From IMG/VR virus record IMGVR_UViG_2703718850_000008: 11,865 nucleotides of DNA, one strand, 5' to 3'. Positions 4,975 to 10,508 of the stretch are shown piece after piece. The notes beneath the pieces were generated by a model. It did not search any database. It had not been told where the DNA came from and was given only the letters and a program-made list of their open reading frames with translations. Every line of letters begins with the position of its first letter. Positions within the stretch are counted from its first letter, which is position 1. The stretch is from a virus. Lineage: Duplodnaviria > Heunggongvirae > Uroviricota > Caudoviricetes. The position numbers were made by a program, and so were the translations under genes.

Positions 4975-5597
4975 TTTTGAATCACCGTTGTTGCATAAGA
5001 ATAAATAAAAGGGAGTTTTACATATTTCTGGTCAATGGCATCTTTCAGAAAATAGCCTATACCATCACCATATTCTGGTATATGAATAGAAAAAACACTG
5101 TCCGACACAGTCACGCTCACATCAAAAGTGTGCTGCAACGGCGGGTCTATTCCGTTTTTCCCATGAATGAACCGTGCCACACGGCGCTTTAACCAGTCAA
5201 TGCAGAAATGCGAACCGTCAGCCTTATAAAAATTCCAAGTTAATATTCGCTTGAAATAATCATCCGGAACATACGATGCCTGCCCCGGAACATAATTCCG
5301 CATTGCCGCATAAGGGATTGTATTGTATTCAATGGTATCGTATGCGCCGCGTGCAATAGCCTCCTCGGAAACCTGTAGTAAAGGCCTTTCAACGCCATAA
5401 ATCCCGAGAGCAATCCAGTCCAGCAATTGCCCGGTTATTGATTCCGATGTCCAGCATGGCAATGCCAGATTGTTGAGTGAATCGAGGTATTCCTGAGCAA
5501 TTTCATTGTATGCATCAAAGAACGCAACAACATTCGGATCATCTCTGTACTGCACAAACGGATAAGCAGGGAGAATTTTTTCAGTCAGATATTGCAT
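4971..5597 (-). CDS. Tail/baseplate protein in the gpI position (I-like, DUF2313-type by position)
   Basis: Start taken at the ATG at 5597..5595 (MQYLTEKILPAYP...) rather than the ORF-track start at 5705, because the upstream part of that ORF overlaps the J-like gene. The stop overlaps the fibre start. It lies between the J-like gene and the tail fibre, as in P2 (J-I-H) and Mu (gp47-gp48-fibre). Family assigned by position and size only. Confidence 0.5.
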   Translation of the reverse strand: MQYLTEKILPAYPFVQYRDDPNVVAFFDAYNEIAQEYLDSLNNLALPCWTSESITGQLLDWIALGIYGVERPLLQVSEEAIARGAYDTIEYNTIPYAAMRNYVPGQASYVPDDYFKRILTWNFYKADGSHFCIDWLKRRVARFIHGKNGIDPPLQHTFDVSVTVSDSVFSIHIPEYGDGIGYFLKDAIDQKYVKLPFIYSYATTVIQK

Positions 5598-6807
5598 ACT
5601 TGTTAACTTGAACCTGTGATGCCACTGTCGAAAAATAGGAATAGGTATCGCCATAAACCAGGCTTGTGTCTTTTGCCGGAAGAACAATATGACCATTAAT
5701 GCCAATGCTCACACTGATTGTTGAGATCAACGTCGCATCAACCAGCAACCTGACAGAACTGGTAAAAATATCCTGGATACGCAGAAGATTTATCGGGTGT
5801 CCGACTTCAATTGAATTGATGTAATCAGCAACGTTTTGCTGCACAGCCATAGCAATACCCGCCGGATCAACATAATCATCAGACACCGTGTTCCAGGTGA
5901 TTAGCACCATGACGTTTTGTGATGACGGGATAACGAACGGCACCTGATAAACGTCCGGCGAAACGGTTATTGAAACCGTGCGTTTTTCCACTGCCGCACC
6001 GGATGGATTGCTTACATCGTTGGTCAGTTTCGAAATATCCGGTACAGATTTGTAAATCGCATAAGCCACATCATACGGATCACCGCCACCAACAACCGCA
6101 ACCCATTTCCCCAGCGACGACTGCCGGAAAGAAATCAGGTTTTCTCGCACACCGCTTACTGATTTGAGCATCGCTTTATAGCAATCCGGTGTTCCCTGCA
6201 CACCAAACATACCGGACTCCATGACTTCGGCGCGGTAAGATGCCCACGTCTGCGCCTCCTGACCTGGCATCCCTGCGGTAAGGTTCGTGCATTTTACAGG
6301 CTGGTCTTTTGGTACTGAGGTAATAACCTGCGTCACAGTCCCTTCCGGTACAGCCCATGAGCCTGACGTTGTGGCCACACAGTAGACTGGTTCAGTCTGC
6401 CCACTTTCCGGCACCACCGTATCGCGGGAAACTGCATACTGGTAGTTGCCATCACCGACAACAAATCCTTTAGGGATACCAAACCCCGGCAACGCCTCAA
6501 ATACCACGTATACCGCCGTATTTGTACTTAATCCCTTCTGTGCTCCATAAATGTTTCCGAGTTGCATCAGTAACGGAATATTTGCGCCGTATGGGCTTAC
6601 GGAGTTAATAAGGTCCACCCGCGCCTGGTCTATTAATGCCAGCGCCCCGACTGCCGTGCTGGCAAGGTCAGTAATAAGCCCCGCCGGAAGGTTGGCTGTA
6701 TATCCAGGTACTTTTTCAGCAACTCTGATGATAAGATTTGCAAGCAAATCATTGGGTGGCGTAGGCTGCGCCCCCGCACTGGTCATAGTAATTGGTATTT
6801 CTGACAT
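5581..6807 (-). CDS. Baseplate wedge protein, J-like (P2 gpJ / Mu gp47 position)
   Basis: 408-aa ORF with ATG at 6807 preceded by GGAG (6816..6813) at 5-nt spacing. It overlaps the I-like start by 17 nt and sits immediately upstream of the I-like and fibre genes. Assignment is mainly by synteny and size; sequence similarity was not verified. Confidence 0.5.
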   Translation of the reverse strand: MSEIPITMTSAGAQPTPPNDLLANLIIRVAEKVPGYTANLPAGLITDLASTAVGALALIDQARVDLINSVSPYGANIPLLMQLGNIYGAQKGLSTNTAVYVVFEALPGFGIPKGFVVGDGNYQYAVSRDTVVPESGQTEPVYCVATTSGSWAVPEGTVTQVITSVPKDQPVKCTNLTAGMPGQEAQTWASYRAEVMESGMFGVQGTPDCYKAMLKSVSGVRENLISFRQSSLGKWVAVVGGGDPYDVAYAIYKSVPDISKLTNDVSNPSGAAVEKRTVSITVSPDVYQVPFVIPSSQNVMVLITWNTVSDDYVDPAGIAMAVQQNVADYINSIEVGHPINLLRIQDIFTSSVRLLVDATLISTISVSIGINGHIVLPAKDTSLVYGDTYSYFSTVASQVQVNKYAISD

Positions 6808-6820
6808 ATTTACTCCATTA

Positions 6821-6845
6821 AAAAACCCGCTTTCGCGGGTTTTTT
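6821..6845. terminator. Intrinsic (rho-independent) terminator hairpin, symmetric, between the nuclease gene and the J-like gene
   Basis: AAAAACCCGC-TTTC-GCGGGTTTTTT: GC-rich stem of 6-7 bp with a 4-nt loop, flanked by an A-tract on one side and a T-tract on the other, so it is U-tailed on either strand. It starts 3 nt beyond the nuclease stop (6848..6850) on the minus strand. Confidence 0.6.
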
Positions 6846-6847
6846 AC

Positions 6848-8008
6848 TTATTCAACCTCTTCTAAACTGCTCACTCTGGACCCTCGGCGGAAATTATCAT
6901 CATTTTTAACATACTCGTATGAATCCAGAATCAAACCAGATATGCGAAGTATATCTTCCGGATTAGTTATATGTATCCTTTTACCATCCGTATCAAGTCG
7001 AGCTCGTCTTATTTCATTCAACTGAACTTCACTAAGCGAAATAGGTAAAGTTATAAATGAAGATTTTTTATCATAAAATCTTAACAGCCATCTATTAGTT
7101 TTACCATTCAATAGCACACCAAAATATGACTCAGTATCTTTATATTCTATATTATCTTCTGTTTGTATGATTTGTTTTACCCTTTCAAATAGCTCCAATT
7201 CTTTGGCTGTGGTTATTATGTTGGGGTTTTCTTCATCAACAATGGCGTTATTAACTTGTGTATCCGTTGCATCATTTTCTTTAGTTTGCTCTACCGGTTG
7301 TGTAGATAGCCCGGAAACCACCATTGCGCTAACAGCGCGCTCAACGGCCTGTTTAACTAATGGAGTCACGAACTCAAGAAATCTCTGATTAAGTTGTCTC
7401 TCAATATTTGAACGACTAGCAACATATCGAACAAACTCCAGATCAACTTCACGAAGACTAGAACTGATTGTTTTAGTAAATGAATTCAAATAAACACTTT
7501 CTTCAGCCAGTGTCCGTAAAGCCTCTGGTTTGAATTTATCATAACGAAAACGAAATAATTGTGTAATATCGGAGTGAGTTAGAGAATCCATTCTTATTTT
7601 TAAAAACGGCGTTGAATCCATTATGTTTTTTTGTTTCAAATCCGTAAAAAAACGCCATTCAACACCATTTGTAATGGCTGATATAGTAACTTCCGGTGTT
7701 GAATTAAAATATCTTGATAGCTGTGGGCAGTGATTATCAATTTGTTCTGAAAACGATTTCGCCTCAATGAACATCACAGGAACATCATGACAAAATAAAG
7801 CGTAATCAACCCGTTCATTAGCCTTAACCCCGGGGAAGTCAGCACTATACTCAGCTTTGACTTTTCTTGGATCATACGGAGTAAAACCAAGAATATCTAG
7901 TAATGGCATAATGAGTGCTTGTTTTGTCGTTTCTTCAGTTGTACAAAACACCCCCATTTTTGCAACATGCTCTGTGTGTATTTTTAACTTATTTGCAAAA
8001 TTTTCCAT
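6848..8008 (-). CDS. PD-(D/E)xK nuclease with HsdR-N-terminal-like domain plus uncharacterised C-terminal domain; prophage cargo (moron), candidate defence/exclusion protein
   Basis: Start taken at the ATG at 8008..8006 (MENFANKLK...) because GGAGGAG lies 6 nt upstream; the in-frame ATG at 8023 has no SD. The N-terminal ~150 aa carry TEETTKQALIMPLLDILGF...ERVDYALF...VMFIEAKS, i.e. the E...D...EAK pattern and the LIxPxLxxLG motif typical of type I restriction HsdR N-terminal-like PD-(D/E)xK domains. The coding sequence is visibly more AT-rich than the flanking tail genes and is followed by its own terminator. Confidence 0.7.
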   Translation of the reverse strand: MENFANKLKIHTEHVAKMGVFCTTEETTKQALIMPLLDILGFTPYDPRKVKAEYSADFPGVKANERVDYALFCHDVPVMFIEAKSFSEQIDNHCPQLSRYFNSTPEVTISAITNGVEWRFFTDLKQKNIMDSTPFLKIRMDSLTHSDITQLFRFRYDKFKPEALRTLAEESVYLNSFTKTISSSLREVDLEFVRYVASRSNIERQLNQRFLEFVTPLVKQAVERAVSAMVVSGLSTQPVEQTKENDATDTQVNNAIVDEENPNIITTAKELELFERVKQIIQTEDNIEYKDTESYFGVLLNGKTNRWLLRFYDKKSSFITLPISLSEVQLNEIRRARLDTDGKRIHITNPEDILRISGLILDSYEYVKNDDNFRRGSRVSSLEEVE

Positions 8009-8036
8009 GCTTGTCTCCTCCATGGTAACAATATGT

Positions 8037-8066
8037 ATTTTGCAAATCCGAAATAATATATGTCAA
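8037..8066 (-). promoter_or_regulatory. Putative sigma70-type promoter for the nuclease gene (TTGACA - 18 nt - CAAAAT)
   Basis: Minus-strand TTGACA at 8066..8061 followed after 18 nt by CAAAAT at 8042..8037, about 30 nt upstream of the start codon, within a 149-bp AT-rich intergenic region. The -10 is weak; this is a prediction by eye only. Confidence 0.25.
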
Positions 8067-8157
8067 TATGCTCCAGCTTAGAAAATTACTCGCCCCCCTA
8101 AAATATCTCTCTACAGCACTCCAAACCAAGGTAAAAGTTTTATCATAAAACTGTGAT

Positions 8158-8505
8158 TCATACCGGCACCTGCGTCCGGTAACTGGTCCCATTAAAAAAC
8201 ACAACATCGATGTTATAGGTGGGGTTATCTGCTCCATCTACCTTTGAAATTGCCAGTGATGCAAAATACCCAGCAAACTGTTGCTGAACCATGTTCACAT
8301 AGTAGTCTGGGTAAATCTGCTGCACGATGCACTGCTGTGCAGGAATACCGTAATTCGCGTAAAACGGCGACTCCCCCAATCCCAGCTTTAACGTCTGAAT
8401 GAGCGTCGTCAGCCAGCCGTAGGAGAAATCACCGTTGGCGTCAGATTCTACTGCAACCCATTTTTTGTTGCCGTTCGCGTCGGTGACGCGGCCCCATGTT
8501 CTCAT
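8158..8505 (-). CDS. Baseplate protein, gpW / gp25-like (sheath-initiator family) by motif, size and position
   Basis: 115 aa, sitting between the V-like and J-like genes where W sits in P2/Mu. It contains LIQTLKLGLGESPFYANYG, which aligns with the gp25/gpW signature as I recall it (T4 gp25 ...TTRKGSRPFDPEFG, P2 W ...TPVGSRVMRRDYG; spacing G-x8-(Y/F)G conserved). The start overlaps the upstream ORF stop (ATGA). Confidence 0.45.
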   Translation of the reverse strand: MRTWGRVTDANGNKKWVAVESDANGDFSYGWLTTLIQTLKLGLGESPFYANYGIPAQQCIVQQIYPDYYVNMVQQQFAGYFASLAISKVDGADNPTYNIDVVFFNGTSYRTQVPV

Positions 8506-8705
8506 CGTGCCCCCATCACTTTAACTAACTCTGTCAGTACTGGTGAAAAGGCAAATGCTAAAGCTACGAGTGCAGCGGTGTAATACATGCGTCGTAAGGT
8601 ATTGCTTTTTGCCACTAATTTTAAGGCTTTCACAATCCAGTCTCCTCCGCTAAAATTAATCACGGAAGACCTCCAAACATACGTAATCATCCCTTGCGTA
8701 TTCAA
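8502..8705 (-). CDS. Small hypothetical protein with a hydrophobic C-terminal segment; start uncertain
   Basis: The ORF-track start is a TTG inside the T-tract of the upstream terminator, which is implausible. A GTG at about 8600 preceded by GGAGGAG would give a ~43-aa product ending in YYTAALVALAFAFSPVLTELV, a possible transmembrane helix. It may not be a real gene. Confidence 0.25.
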   Translation of the reverse strand: MNTQGMITYVWRSSVINFSGGDWIVKALKLVAKSNTLRRMYYTAALVALAFAFSPVLTELVKVMGAR

Positions 8706-8717
8706 GGTGAGAAACAG

Positions 8718-8749
8718 AAAACCCCGACTGGGCCAACAGTCGGGGTTTT
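8718..8749. terminator. Intrinsic terminator-like hairpin downstream of the V-like gene
   Basis: AAAACCCCGACTG-GGCCAA-CAGTCGGGGTTTT: 13-bp stem, 6-nt loop. On the minus strand it is followed by TTTTCTGTTTCT; on the plus strand by TTTTCGTTTT. Confidence 0.55.
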
Positions 8750-8787
8750 CGTTTTATGGTCAGAATTTAAAGTGAAATGAACCGGTA

Positions 8788-9501
8788 TTAACCAGGATTT
8801 GGTTTCTTCGACGTAATCGTGCTGCTGCCGCTTTGAACACCAGTCACATCGTGGCTGTGGCCGCTGACGCTCACGCCGTTGATAACTGCATCCATCTCGA
8901 CATTAAGAGGACCAATCAGCGAAGCGGTTGTATCCTTCATCTGGGCTTTGTCCTGGACGATCGGTCCATTGAGGTGAATTTTCCCGTTCAGGAAAATATC
9001 TTCGGCCTCGAGGTAAACAGCTTTCGACTTTTGCCTGATTTCTTCCAGAGCCACCATTACCGAGCTACTGCCGTCCTCTGTTTTGAGGATCGCGCCATCC
9101 GGACCGTACAAAACGATTTTTTGCGGATCTTCGTCGGACCACTCCTTGTTTGCCAATGGCACGAAAAACAGGGGAGTGAGCGACATCGAGTAAGAAAGCG
9201 TTGCCATACCGGTTCCCAATCCGGACACACCGCGCAGTGATACATCAGCGGCAATTGTTACTCCTCGATCGCCCGGCTGTATCGGGTAACGGATATACGG
9301 GAATGTGGCGACAGGGATTGTTATCTGCGGGAAGTTGATCCCCTCCGGCAGCATATCAAACTGAACTGTCACTATTTGCCCGCAGATATCGACAACATGG
9401 CAGGGCAATTCGCGGCCTTTAAGCTCGGCTTGCTGGTTACCAGAACTGGTCATCATCTCCGACAGTGTTCGGAGAAACGGTAATTTTTGAGCGTTTGACA
9501 T
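8788..9501 (-). CDS. Baseplate central spike protein, gpV-like
   Basis: 237 aa. The C-terminal SGHSHDVTGVQSGSS resembles the His-containing apex motif of P2 gpV / Mu gp45 spikes (P2 V ...HTHKHPGDSGG as recalled). It sits upstream of the W-like gene, and its start overlaps the upstream stop (TAATG). Confidence 0.5.
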   Translation of the reverse strand: MSNAQKLPFLRTLSEMMTSSGNQQAELKGRELPCHVVDICGQIVTVQFDMLPEGINFPQITIPVATFPYIRYPIQPGDRGVTIAADVSLRGVSGLGTGMATLSYSMSLTPLFFVPLANKEWSDEDPQKIVLYGPDGAILKTEDGSSSVMVALEEIRQKSKAVYLEAEDIFLNGKIHLNGPIVQDKAQMKDTTASLIGPLNVEMDAVINGVSVSGHSHDVTGVQSGSSTITSKKPNPG

Positions 9502-10508
9502 TACACCCTCGCCCAGTTCTCAGCATATGCCTCAAATACCGTCACCCAGGCATCGCCATCGGCTGTCAGATACGAACCAATGTGTCTGACTGATTTCACA
9601 AGAAATTTCCCGGTGAACGTGGTCGAATTTTTTGCGATAACGCTGGGTACCGTTGTATTAGCCATCACAATCGACGCAGCGCCAGAATATAGCCCCTCCG
9701 GCAGTTTAACCACATCACCACATCTGATATCGCCTCTCATAGGGCATTTGAAACTGACGGTAAACGGCGCTATCCATGTCGGCTGCCCGACCAGTTCATG
9801 GGCATGAATTGTTTTTGGCTCACCCCACTTTGCCGATGCGTTATCGTAGATTCGTATTCTGTCGGAAAGAATACTGATGGCGATTCCGCTATACCTTTCA
9901 TTACGCATCATCGCAATAGAGGCGTTTTTTACGACCATAGCCAGCGAACCAATCTCCGTATATTTGCCCGTCCACGGCTCTGGCAAAACCAGGTTGTCGC
10001 TGACTGTGCAATCAATAAGTTTATTGGGATATGCTTTTTGCAAAGCGCGGACTAAAACATCACCCACCCTTTCCCCTGCTTCCCCCTGCCCCTCAATTGA
10101 AAAAGGGTTACCGTCATCGGTTTTGCGTATGCTTGGATTTATTACCAGGTTTAAAGTCTGGTTCGTGCCGATCCAGTTGGCATAGGCCAGATAAATTTCA
10201 CCATAGATTACCTCCCCCTGTTGATCCTTATTTGCCAGTGGTAACCCCTGAACAAAGCCTGCTTTCATACGTACCAGACAACCCTGCAAACTTACGCTTT
10301 GCTTCAGCATGTCAATTGGTAATCCATAGATCGTCAGCATCGTACCCGAACAGACTACATCCAGGCCGGTTACTTCAAAGTCAAATTCAACATGCAACCC
10401 ACATCCTGGTGTTTCATTGGTATCAAAAGGTCCAATGGGTTTTCCATTGCTATCCACTGGCGGCTTGCCTGTTTTAGGATTAATAATTTCCAGTCGGTAA
10501 TAACGCAT
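9501..10508 (-). CDS. Phage baseplate/tail morphogenesis protein (possible hub-type protein); family unresolved
   Basis: 335-aa ORF, translationally coupled on both sides (TAATG overlaps at 9501 and 10508), immediately upstream of the spike gene. No motif recognised. Confidence 0.45.
   Translation of the reverse strand: MRYYRLEIINPKTGKPPVDSNGKPIGPFDTNETPGCGLHVEFDFEVTGLDVVCSGTMLTIYGLPIDMLKQSVSLQGCLVRMKAGFVQGLPLANKDQQGEVIYGEIYLAYANWIGTNQTLNLVINPSIRKTDDGNPFSIEGQGEAGERVGDVLVRALQKAYPNKLIDCTVSDNLVLPEPWTGKYTEIGSLAMVVKNASIAMMRNERYSGIAISILSDRIRIYDNASAKWGEPKTIHAHELVGQPTWIAPFTVSFKCPMRGDIRCGDVVKLPEGLYSGAASIVMANTTVPSVIAKNSTTFTGKFLVKSVRHIGSYLTADGDAWVTVFEAYAENWARV

Follow-up and report, generated by a model that had tools for sequence, protein, structure and literature searches.

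A single-gene nuclease cassette in the baseplate operon of an Escherichia coli prophage, a candidate defence or exclusion gene from a widespread phage family

Introduction

Why does the baseplate operon of a tailed phage carry a single AT-rich gene, closed by its own terminator, between two genes that overlap in distant relatives? The question is raised by an 11,865-nt stretch of viral DNA (Caudoviricetes; IMG/VR record IMGVR_UViG_2703718850_000008), here referred to as the window. In it, a 1.35-kb segment at 6813..8157 with one gene separates the gene at the position of gpW from a gene resembling Baseplate J (together with the preceding gene, hereafter V, W and J). A sequence-only reading of this DNA had described the segment as an inserted cargo cassette whose product is a nuclease of no named family and a candidate for defence or exclusion. 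We compared the locus with related prophages, searched the protein against domain, profile and structure collections, and surveyed the genomic neighbourhoods of its homologues.

The segment is very probably a cargo cassette of the moron type, and horizontal acquisition is the best explanation for its presence in the W-J slot of Rac-SA53-like Escherichia coli prophages. As to what the gene does, a lysogen-expressed, methyltransferase-independent nuclease of defence or exclusion is the best reading; we draw its function and mechanism from context and give it about an even chance of being correct.

A foreign cassette in the W-J junction

Over the 4.1 kb compared, the window shows 100% identity to several E. 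coli chromosomes, for instance that of strain JNU, where this DNA lies within a prophage at the Rac locus beside ompN and uspF, a relative of phage Rac-SA53. When compared by BLAST with seven related prophages, homology of 93-97% ends at 6812 (6827 in one of them) and restarts at 8147-8158, in near-exact agreement with the insertion bounds of 6817..8157 that had been proposed. The segment also differs from its surroundings in composition, as had been claimed. Its G+C content is 35.6%, against 49.2% in the flanking J, W and V genes, and the G+C content at third codon positions (GC3) is 25.8% in the nuclease gene, against 48-59% in J, W and V.

W and J had been expected to be neighbours and usually coupled, and in distant relatives they are. 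In Klebsiella phage Chronis, Yersinia phage vB_YenM_29.18 and Shewanella phage vB_Sb_QDWS, whose W-position proteins are 50-59% identical to that of the window, V, W and J follow one another with 4-nt overlaps; their W-J junctions are empty and translationally coupled. About 75 of the closer E. coli prophages hold different cargo there. Since distant relatives show the overlapping V-W-J order and close E. coli relatives are loaded, the W-J slot is a derived feature of the E. coli lineage.

Among 5426 complete E. coli genomes, the flanks of the slot were found in 100 and the cassette in only 25, with at least 99.6% identity across all carriers; the leader sequence of the cassette is also restricted to these 25 genomes. 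The ten cassette-bearing prophages listed together with flanking DNA show 98-100% identity across the 4.1-kb query, compared with ~95% for the non-carriers. In all seven close relatives examined the slot is filled by other cargo. The usual cargo in the listed non-carriers is an ant (AntA/AntB) antirepressor gene on the opposite strand, which overlaps the 3' end of the W-position gene and is accompanied by one or two proteins without a Pfam or PADLOC match, and some strains carry a 356-aa (amino acid) protein annotated as 'LprI family'. In strain ETEC4090 the alternative cargo is co-oriented and ends in an analogous hairpin followed by the same J ribosome-binding site, which indicates a shared slot architecture.

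Could the gene encode a conserved baseplate protein, either structural or needed for assembly? Its location in the tail operon and its orientation would agree with that. But it is missing from ~75% of the close prophages and from the three distant relatives examined, its composition is foreign, it has a nuclease fold, and its homologues lie mostly outside structural modules. No orthologue with neighbour-like composition is conserved at the W-J position, and no well-characterised non-defence family matches the protein. A baseplate component is refuted by these comparative data, and we give it practically no credence.

The distribution also bears on a selfish or addiction element, either a toxin-like nuclease that stabilises the prophage or a free-standing homing-type endonuclease that cuts empty W-J junctions. 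In its favour, the nuclease gene is a single mobile gene that occupies, with its homologues, at least four different genomic slots, is inserted here precisely between conserved genes, is nearly invariant in 25 of 25 carriers and is adjoined at some loci by toxin-antitoxin genes. Against this, the gene has no antitoxin or other conserved partner, and the listed carrier prophages are themselves as alike as noted above, which fits one acquisition with vertical descent. Moreover, the close relatives examined have other cargo instead of an empty target site, and the family is found mainly beside repressors, not inside conserved genes. We consider a selfish element quite improbable. Repeated homing in particular was rejected, as the carriers form one 98-100% identical group and the seven close relatives contain no uninterrupted target.

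As a separate observation, two identical 12-nt stretches in direct orientation, CCATTAAAAAAC, bracket the cassette at 6815-6826 and 8189-8200. One copy is situated at the J-proximal junction, covering part of the terminator T-tract and the Shine-Dalgarno (SD) site of J, and the other within the 3' part of the W-position gene. Recombination that brought in the cassette may have used this repeat as microhomology, or the repeat may reflect chance in AT-rich DNA.

Organisation and expression signals of the cassette

The nuclease gene occupies 6848..8008 on the minus strand as one intact open reading frame (ORF) of 386 aa, with ATG at 8008 and TAA at 6848-6850; an in-frame upstream ATG at 8023 would add 5 aa if used. 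The gene is preceded by an AT-rich leader of 149 bp (8009..8157, minus strand) containing a strong SD site, GGAGGAG, at 8015-8021 (minus strand). Directly after the stop codon follows a symmetric intrinsic terminator at 6820-6846 (minus strand), composed of CCCGC-GAAA-GCGGG with an A-tract and a T-tract. Single gene, SD site, leader length and terminator are all present as the sequence-only reading had described them. In silico, the terminator hairpin reaches -17.4 kcal/mol (z = -5.0), none of 200 shuffled sequences folds as well, and the terminator contains a 12-nt perfect inverted repeat.

A promoter-like site is found in the leader at 8066..8037 (minus strand), with TTGACA (8066-8061), an 18-nt spacer and CAAAAT (8042-8037), that is, 10 of 12 positions of a sigma-70-like consensus. 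It is the best match of the region and is correctly positioned 5' of the gene, but the DNA is AT-rich and yields 12 such sites, against 6.1 expected in shuffles; we regard this candidate promoter as suggestive. In the layout of promoter, gene and terminator that had been put forward as typical of a moron, the insertion, the composition and the terminator are confirmed, and the promoter is a consensus match. Lambdoid late operons are transcribed by a Q-modified, terminator-resistant polymerase, so that an internal terminator would not block the expression of tail genes during lytic growth.

Two copies of an 8-bp palindrome, TTTGCAAA, lie 47 bp apart in this region (7992-7999 and 8039-8046), inside an 11-nt perfect inverted repeat. 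One copy overlaps the candidate -10 hexamer and the other falls at codons 4-6 of the nuclease gene. The window contains 4 copies against 0.71 expected, and 4 of 200 shuffles reach 4. The pair could be an operator pair, or chance. An SD-sequestering hairpin in the 5' leader was also considered and dropped, as the leader folds no better than shuffles (z -0.38).

The product is a predicted nuclease of a catalogued family

The only Pfam matches in the protein are HSDR_N (5.1e-14) and HSDR_N_2 (2.3e-9), in residues 25-128. Among the PHROGs, the protein matches phrog_4225, 'endonuclease', with an E-value of 4.5e-149, and its residues 1-370 of 386 align with positions 1-357 of the 357-position profile. 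The nuclease prediction thus stands, while the statement that the protein belongs to no named family does not: it is a full-length member of PHROG 4225, with no structural difference from it. In databases the family is named 'endonuclease' (PHROG 4225), 'type I restriction enzyme HsdR N-terminal domain-containing protein' (NCBI) or 'prophage Lp2 protein 6'. We found no experimental study of the PHROG 4225 family in the literature; HepS (PMC13043305) and SNIPE (PMC13190303) were considered and are unrelated to it. When the protein was run against PADLOC-DB v2.0.0 (2023; 5027 models), as had been advised, no model matched at the threshold of E <= 1, and distant family members match only the nuclease-domain parts of type IIG, mad2 and Cas4 models. 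The full protein gave noise against PDB sequences (E >= 0.16), and a BFVD fold search returned nothing beyond one uncharacterised phage homologue.

The family is large. A word-indexed search gave 1356 homologues and an exhaustive search 3369 cluster representatives at E <= 0.001, with 293 below 1e-30; the listed representatives are mostly 340-420 aa long, and the remainder are shorter fragments. Homologues with 62-87% identity occur across Enterobacterales, and those with 30-37% identity in phages of Clostridium, Enterococcus, Lacticaseibacillus, Streptococcus, Porphyromonas, Fusobacterium, Corynebacterium and Pseudomonas. As a whole, the family ranges over temperate phages of Pseudomonadota, Gram-positive, Bacteroidota, Fusobacteria and Actinobacteria hosts, and the G+C content of the gene is 30-38% in each host examined. 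With pN of 0.09-0.27 and pS of 0.71-0.80, synonymous sites being near or at saturation, the nuclease gene is under strong purifying selection.

For the structure we used an AlphaFold2 (AF2) model built from a diverse 60-sequence alignment, whose predicted local distance difference test (pLDDT) score is 90.6 overall and below 50 for residues 234-252, in place of one built from a shallow alignment (pLDDT 64.8). The protein can be divided into three parts, all encoded on the minus strand. First, residues 1-140 (7589..8008) form an N-terminal PD-(D/E)xK nuclease domain with E25, D68, E82-x-K84 and Q96xxxY100. Second, according to the AF2 model and the alignment, a basic helical linker (residues 141-233, pI 8.3) is followed by variable, acidic, disordered residues 234-255 (together 7244..7588). 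Third, residues 256-386 (6851..7243) form a C-terminal alpha/beta domain with a predicted fold like those of YdhG/DUF1801, YjbR/DUF419 and the C-terminal domain of T4 MotA. A membrane segment is absent.

The alignment extends down to 26% identity; E25, K29, D68, Y69, K84, Y100 and G115 do not vary in it, and conservation is at least 90% at both E82 and Q96. The arrangement E...D...ExK with QxxxY is the active site of the HsdR-type PD-(D/E)xK clade (Steczkiewicz et al. 2012, PMC3424549). In the fold search, the structures of EcoR124I and Vibrio vulnificus HsdR were among the top matches, and the fold is nearer to the nuclease domains of restriction enzymes than to lambda Exo, RecE or RecB. Judged by its residues, the product is predicted with good confidence to be an active nuclease.

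These likenesses raise the possibility that the gene encodes a true HsdR subunit of a type I system, whole or as a relic. Its PGAP product name is 'type I restriction endonuclease', and both the Pfam HSDR_N match and the HsdR structures among the top folds point the same way. But the protein has 386 aa against ~800-1100 aa for HsdR, Pfam finds no superfamily 2 (SF2) motor domains in it, and it scores 19 bits with the NCBIfam HsdR equivalog NF008521, against a cut-off of 729 bits. Neither hsdM nor hsdS is nearby in the window, in the 44-kb locus of the JNU prophage or among the recurrent neighbours of the 80 family loci described below. Moreover, thousands of homologues share its architecture and length, which shows that it is no fragment. 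The NCBI name is wrong, as the motor domains and the HsdM/HsdS partners are absent, and a true type I subunit is refuted by these features.

Other restriction enzymes share parts of this design. Compared by nuclease domain with type I HsdR (EcoR124I, V. vulnificus 3h1t) and with type IIG/IIL enzymes (DrdV, BpuSI), the window protein possesses the PD-(D/E)xK HSDR_N domain but no translocase, methyltransferase or target-recognition module, and its C-terminal domain is unrelated to theirs. Likewise, Pfam finds in it no methyltransferase domain like those of type II/IIG restriction-modification. Type IV enzymes (Mrr, MspJI, PvuRts1I/AbaSI, SauUSI) resemble it as solitary nucleases with no cognate methyltransferase and with a two-domain layout of effector and recognition parts. 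However, none of the type IV models of PADLOC or Pfam matches the protein, only one of 60 family members has a weak Mrr_cat hit (E 0.0022), and the C-terminal domain corresponds to no known reader of modified bases, SRA and winged-helix domains included.

We further focused on this C-terminal domain. Its profile has no relative in Pfam or among PDB sequences, and in a set of 5.8 billion proteins it matched just 33, all of them short (76-256 aa; fragments, or copies of the domain on its own), with no new domain combinations. Conserved residues of the domain are T266, T267, E270, D291, Y295, W307 and R310. A fragment that spans only the C-terminal part of the family is labelled 'predicted type IV restriction endonuclease' by JGI. 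The best match of the modelled fold is frataxin/YdhG-like and the domain is acidic; both weigh against calling it a DNA reader, and we are unwilling to give it that name.

Genomic settings of the nuclease family

The commonest position of the family is directly downstream of a prophage repressor, on the same strand. In a species-level scan 184 loci were found and 80 retrieved, and three neighbours on each side were clustered. One neighbour cluster dominates, that of the S24 repressor, whose gene is the next one upstream in 19 of the 80 loci and shares the strand of the nuclease gene; in 8 more an HTH_31 regulator lies upstream. In lambdoid prophages of Citrobacter and Providencia, a 70-72% identical homologue lies 9-22 bp 3' of a CI-type (HTH_3 plus Peptidase_S24) repressor, on the repressor's strand and opposite to cro; across these and the 19 loci the gap is 9-28 bp. 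Homologues also follow racR in E. coli PCN061 and Klebsiella phage KpF5, and the repressor in Mu-like prophages of Salmonella. In Streptococcus pneumoniae phage IPP25 a single gene separates the repressor from the nuclease, which the integrase follows, and in Clostridium phage CWou-2020a the nuclease belongs to the lysogeny module.

Other settings occur as well. In Stx2 and other lambdoid prophages the homologue lies on the opposite strand between antiterminator Q and the stx2/lysis region, and in a Porphyromonas phage it stands beside HicAB and an 'acr candidate' between structural genes. Further recurring neighbours are KilA-N or antirepressor proteins, DinI, toxin-antitoxin toxins, Q and tail proteins. 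In Pasteurellaceae, a KilA-N-domain protein of 264-296 aa follows the nuclease gene on the same strand (7 of the 80 loci); KilA-N proteins include the prophage abortive-infection protein BstA. A few loci have defence neighbours (PD-Lambda-2, DRT, PDC-M18A, PDC-M53A) or toxin-antitoxin neighbours (HicAB, HigB, RES). No recurrent partner gene was found within three genes on either side in the 80 loci, and with six phage methyltransferases (D12, C5 and other) as phmmer queries no similar ORF was found within 6 kb.

In the Salmonella Mu-like prophages only, a D12-class (Dam-like) methyltransferase gene is convergent to the nuclease homologue at a distance of 63 bp (locus positions 7230-8000). This neighbour is not family-wide, and it could be relevant to the question of modification.

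These positions bear on the idea that the protein is a nuclease of phage DNA metabolism or host takeover, serving the phage's own lytic cycle or induction through recombination, processing of replication intermediates or degradation of host DNA. Nucleases of the PD-(D/E)xK kind are frequent in the recombination modules of phages, several homologues have RecE/RecT or RdgC a few genes away, and the window gene is co-oriented with the late operon, so antiterminated late read-through would cover it. Against this, homologues lie 9-28 bp from the repressor on its strand, opposite to cro and the replication genes, and this co-orientation is a placement for lysogenic, not early lytic, transcription. 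The gene has its own terminator, family members are also found outside prophages, and, as noted, the fold is nearer to restriction nucleases than to lambda Exo, RecE and RecB. Moreover, most close relatives of this prophage lack the cassette, so the gene is dispensable for growth. A role in DNA metabolism is unlikely in our view.

The genes directly behind prophage repressors include lambda rexAB, P22 sieB and Salmonella BstA, which act in the lysogen against superinfecting phages, and in Gram-positive phages the exclusion genes Ltp and Sie2009 lie between int and the repressor. The most informative homologues of the window gene share these positions, behind CI/S24 or RacR or in the gap between repressor and integrase. 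They differ from these genes in that the nuclease has no sequence or fold kinship with their products, and the window copy itself is in a tail operon. The moron layout in the tail operon stands with the qualification on its promoter given above, yet the typical home of the family is instead the lysogeny module behind the repressor. The repressor-adjacent position is stronger evidence for expression in the lysogen than the moron layout alone.

Proposed role in the lysogen

From the repressor-adjacent position of the family, and from the exclusion genes known at that position, we infer expression in the lysogen and protection by nucleolytic attack on incoming DNA. A part in defence or exclusion, which this context suggests, is about as probable as not. 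On this proposal the protein would be a solitary two-part enzyme, with an N-terminal nuclease domain of the HsdR/type IIG type, a helical arm and a C-terminal recognition or sensor domain. Transcription in the lysogen would start at the gene's own promoter and end at its own terminator, leaving the tail genes silent; in lytic growth, antiterminated late transcription would pass through the hairpin. The protein would cut the DNA of superinfecting phages, thereby shielding the lysogen and so the prophage.

As no methyltransferase accompanies the gene, self DNA would have to be spared by specificity for a foreign feature or by latency. In the first case the nuclease may act solely on a feature of foreign DNA in the manner of type IV enzymes, such as modified bases or injection or replication intermediates. 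In the second it may be latent until the C-terminal domain senses a phage cue, as in abortive infection. Any specific mechanism of discrimination is tentative, and we hold none of them to be likely.

Several observations weigh against a defence nuclease expressed in the lysogen. The PADLOC search excludes the defence families of that 2023 database and equally provides no positive support for it. The pI of the C-terminal domain, 4.95, is a poor fit to a simple DNA-binding role. The candidate promoter of the cassette is a consensus match in AT-rich DNA. Enrichment beside known defence systems is weak (~5 of the 80 loci). Finally, members in Gilliamella and Serratia reside in stable chromosomal, non-phage contexts, so a housekeeping or other cellular role is possible.

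The tail module, a second slot and the host prophage

All biologically sensible long ORFs of the window are on the minus strand and together make up one tail module of the myovirus type. A baseplate-hub-like gene (9501..10508, phrog_196) is followed by the V-like gene (8788..9501, weak TIGR01644 match) and by the W-position gene (8158..8505; gpW / Mu gp46 position), which encodes 115 aa and is the upstream flank of the W-J slot. The downstream flank is the Baseplate J/gp47-like gene (5581..6807; Pfam Baseplate_J 1.4e-8, phrog_6 2.5e-38), after which come an I-position gene, a tail fibre gene and a fibre-assembly gene. The J-like gene has its own SD site, GGAG at 6813-6816, beyond the cassette terminator, and shares 96-97% DNA identity with the relatives, ending at 6812. 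The W-position gene is kept in all related prophages, with 93-96% DNA identity to seven of them. Its protein has a full-length match (1.6e-64) to phrog_7986, a group of unknown function, and searches of Pfam, NCBIfam and PDB gave no match. Of the two labels given earlier to the flanks, J-like is confirmed, and W-like holds by position and size only.

A second cargo slot lies between the V-like and W-like genes (8506..8787, minus strand), where homology with the relatives is broken from 8506/8520 to 8616/8710. It contains a very strong bidirectional hairpin at 8717-8750 (14 bp stem), directly after the V-like gene, and a small ORF of 43 aa on the minus strand (8502-8633, from GTG at 8633 to TGA at 8502), preceded by GGAGGAG and without a PGAP annotation in JNU. 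The encoded peptide has one hydrophobic helix (KD 1.85), and the ORF overlaps the start of W in ATGA. Elsewhere this slot holds a Rha-family regulator (strain P393-F10) or a 45-aa ORF, rac58 (Rac-SA53), and in the distant relatives the V-W junction is a 4-nt overlap. We found no mention of slots flanking the W-position gene of a baseplate operon in the literature, in searches that were not aimed specifically at tail-operon hotspots.

Some further observations concern the rest of the prophage. Beyond the tail genes, positions 1-2870 of the window hold what is left of additional tail-fibre and fibre-assembly genes (frameshifted or partial according to PGAP; DUF4376), followed by a gene for a YadA-like trimeric autotransporter adhesin; a run of N at 427-525 interrupts this adhesin gene, and its flanks are very AT-rich (21-30% G+C). 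Outside the window, at 36559-37995 of the JNU locus, a gene in the head region, beside the terminase genes, carries the PGAP label 'anti-CBASS protein Acb1 family protein'. The same prophage may carry counter-defence alongside its candidate defence cargo. In addition, PP818812.1, 'Actinobacillus phage vB_Apl-pPE4', has 95% DNA identity to the E. coli prophage tail module and 97% identity in the W-position protein, equal to the identities of Rac-SA53. Its stated Actinobacillus host looks doubtful, or the phage may derive from an E. coli contaminant.

Relation to known systems and significance

The element is of a kind already known, a prophage moron with a solitary restriction-like nuclease, and its family is catalogued, though absent from PADLOC v2. 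It resembles the lambdoid morons (the Hendrix/Juhala concept; lambda bor and lom, HK97 morons) in having one gene, a promoter-like site, a terminator and an odd composition within a late operon. It differs in that its slot is a multi-allelic hotspot, not a simple case of presence or absence, and in that its expression from the prophage is a prediction.

A bolder generalisation, which we consider doubtful, would make the whole family a new class of prophage immunity, repressor-coupled and independent of methyltransferases. The C-terminal domain, resembling YdhG, YjbR and the MotA C-terminal domain, would then be the discriminator of self and non-self, as a reader of a DNA feature or a sensor of a phage protein, and the W-J and V-W junctions of Rac-SA53-like prophages would be unrecognised hotspots of defence and counter-defence.

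Should defence prove to be the role of the family, the modules in PADLOC v2 would be joined by a very widespread single-gene form of immunity, and a recognition domain without known relatives would offer a possible new way to tell foreign DNA from self. The tail/baseplate operons of E. coli prophages would also hold exchangeable cargo slots, a source of further defence and anti-defence genes; their alternative cargos are uncharacterised except for the ant and Rha regulators. Even if the idea of defence fails, the correction of the annotation and the two derived slots beside the W-position gene stand.

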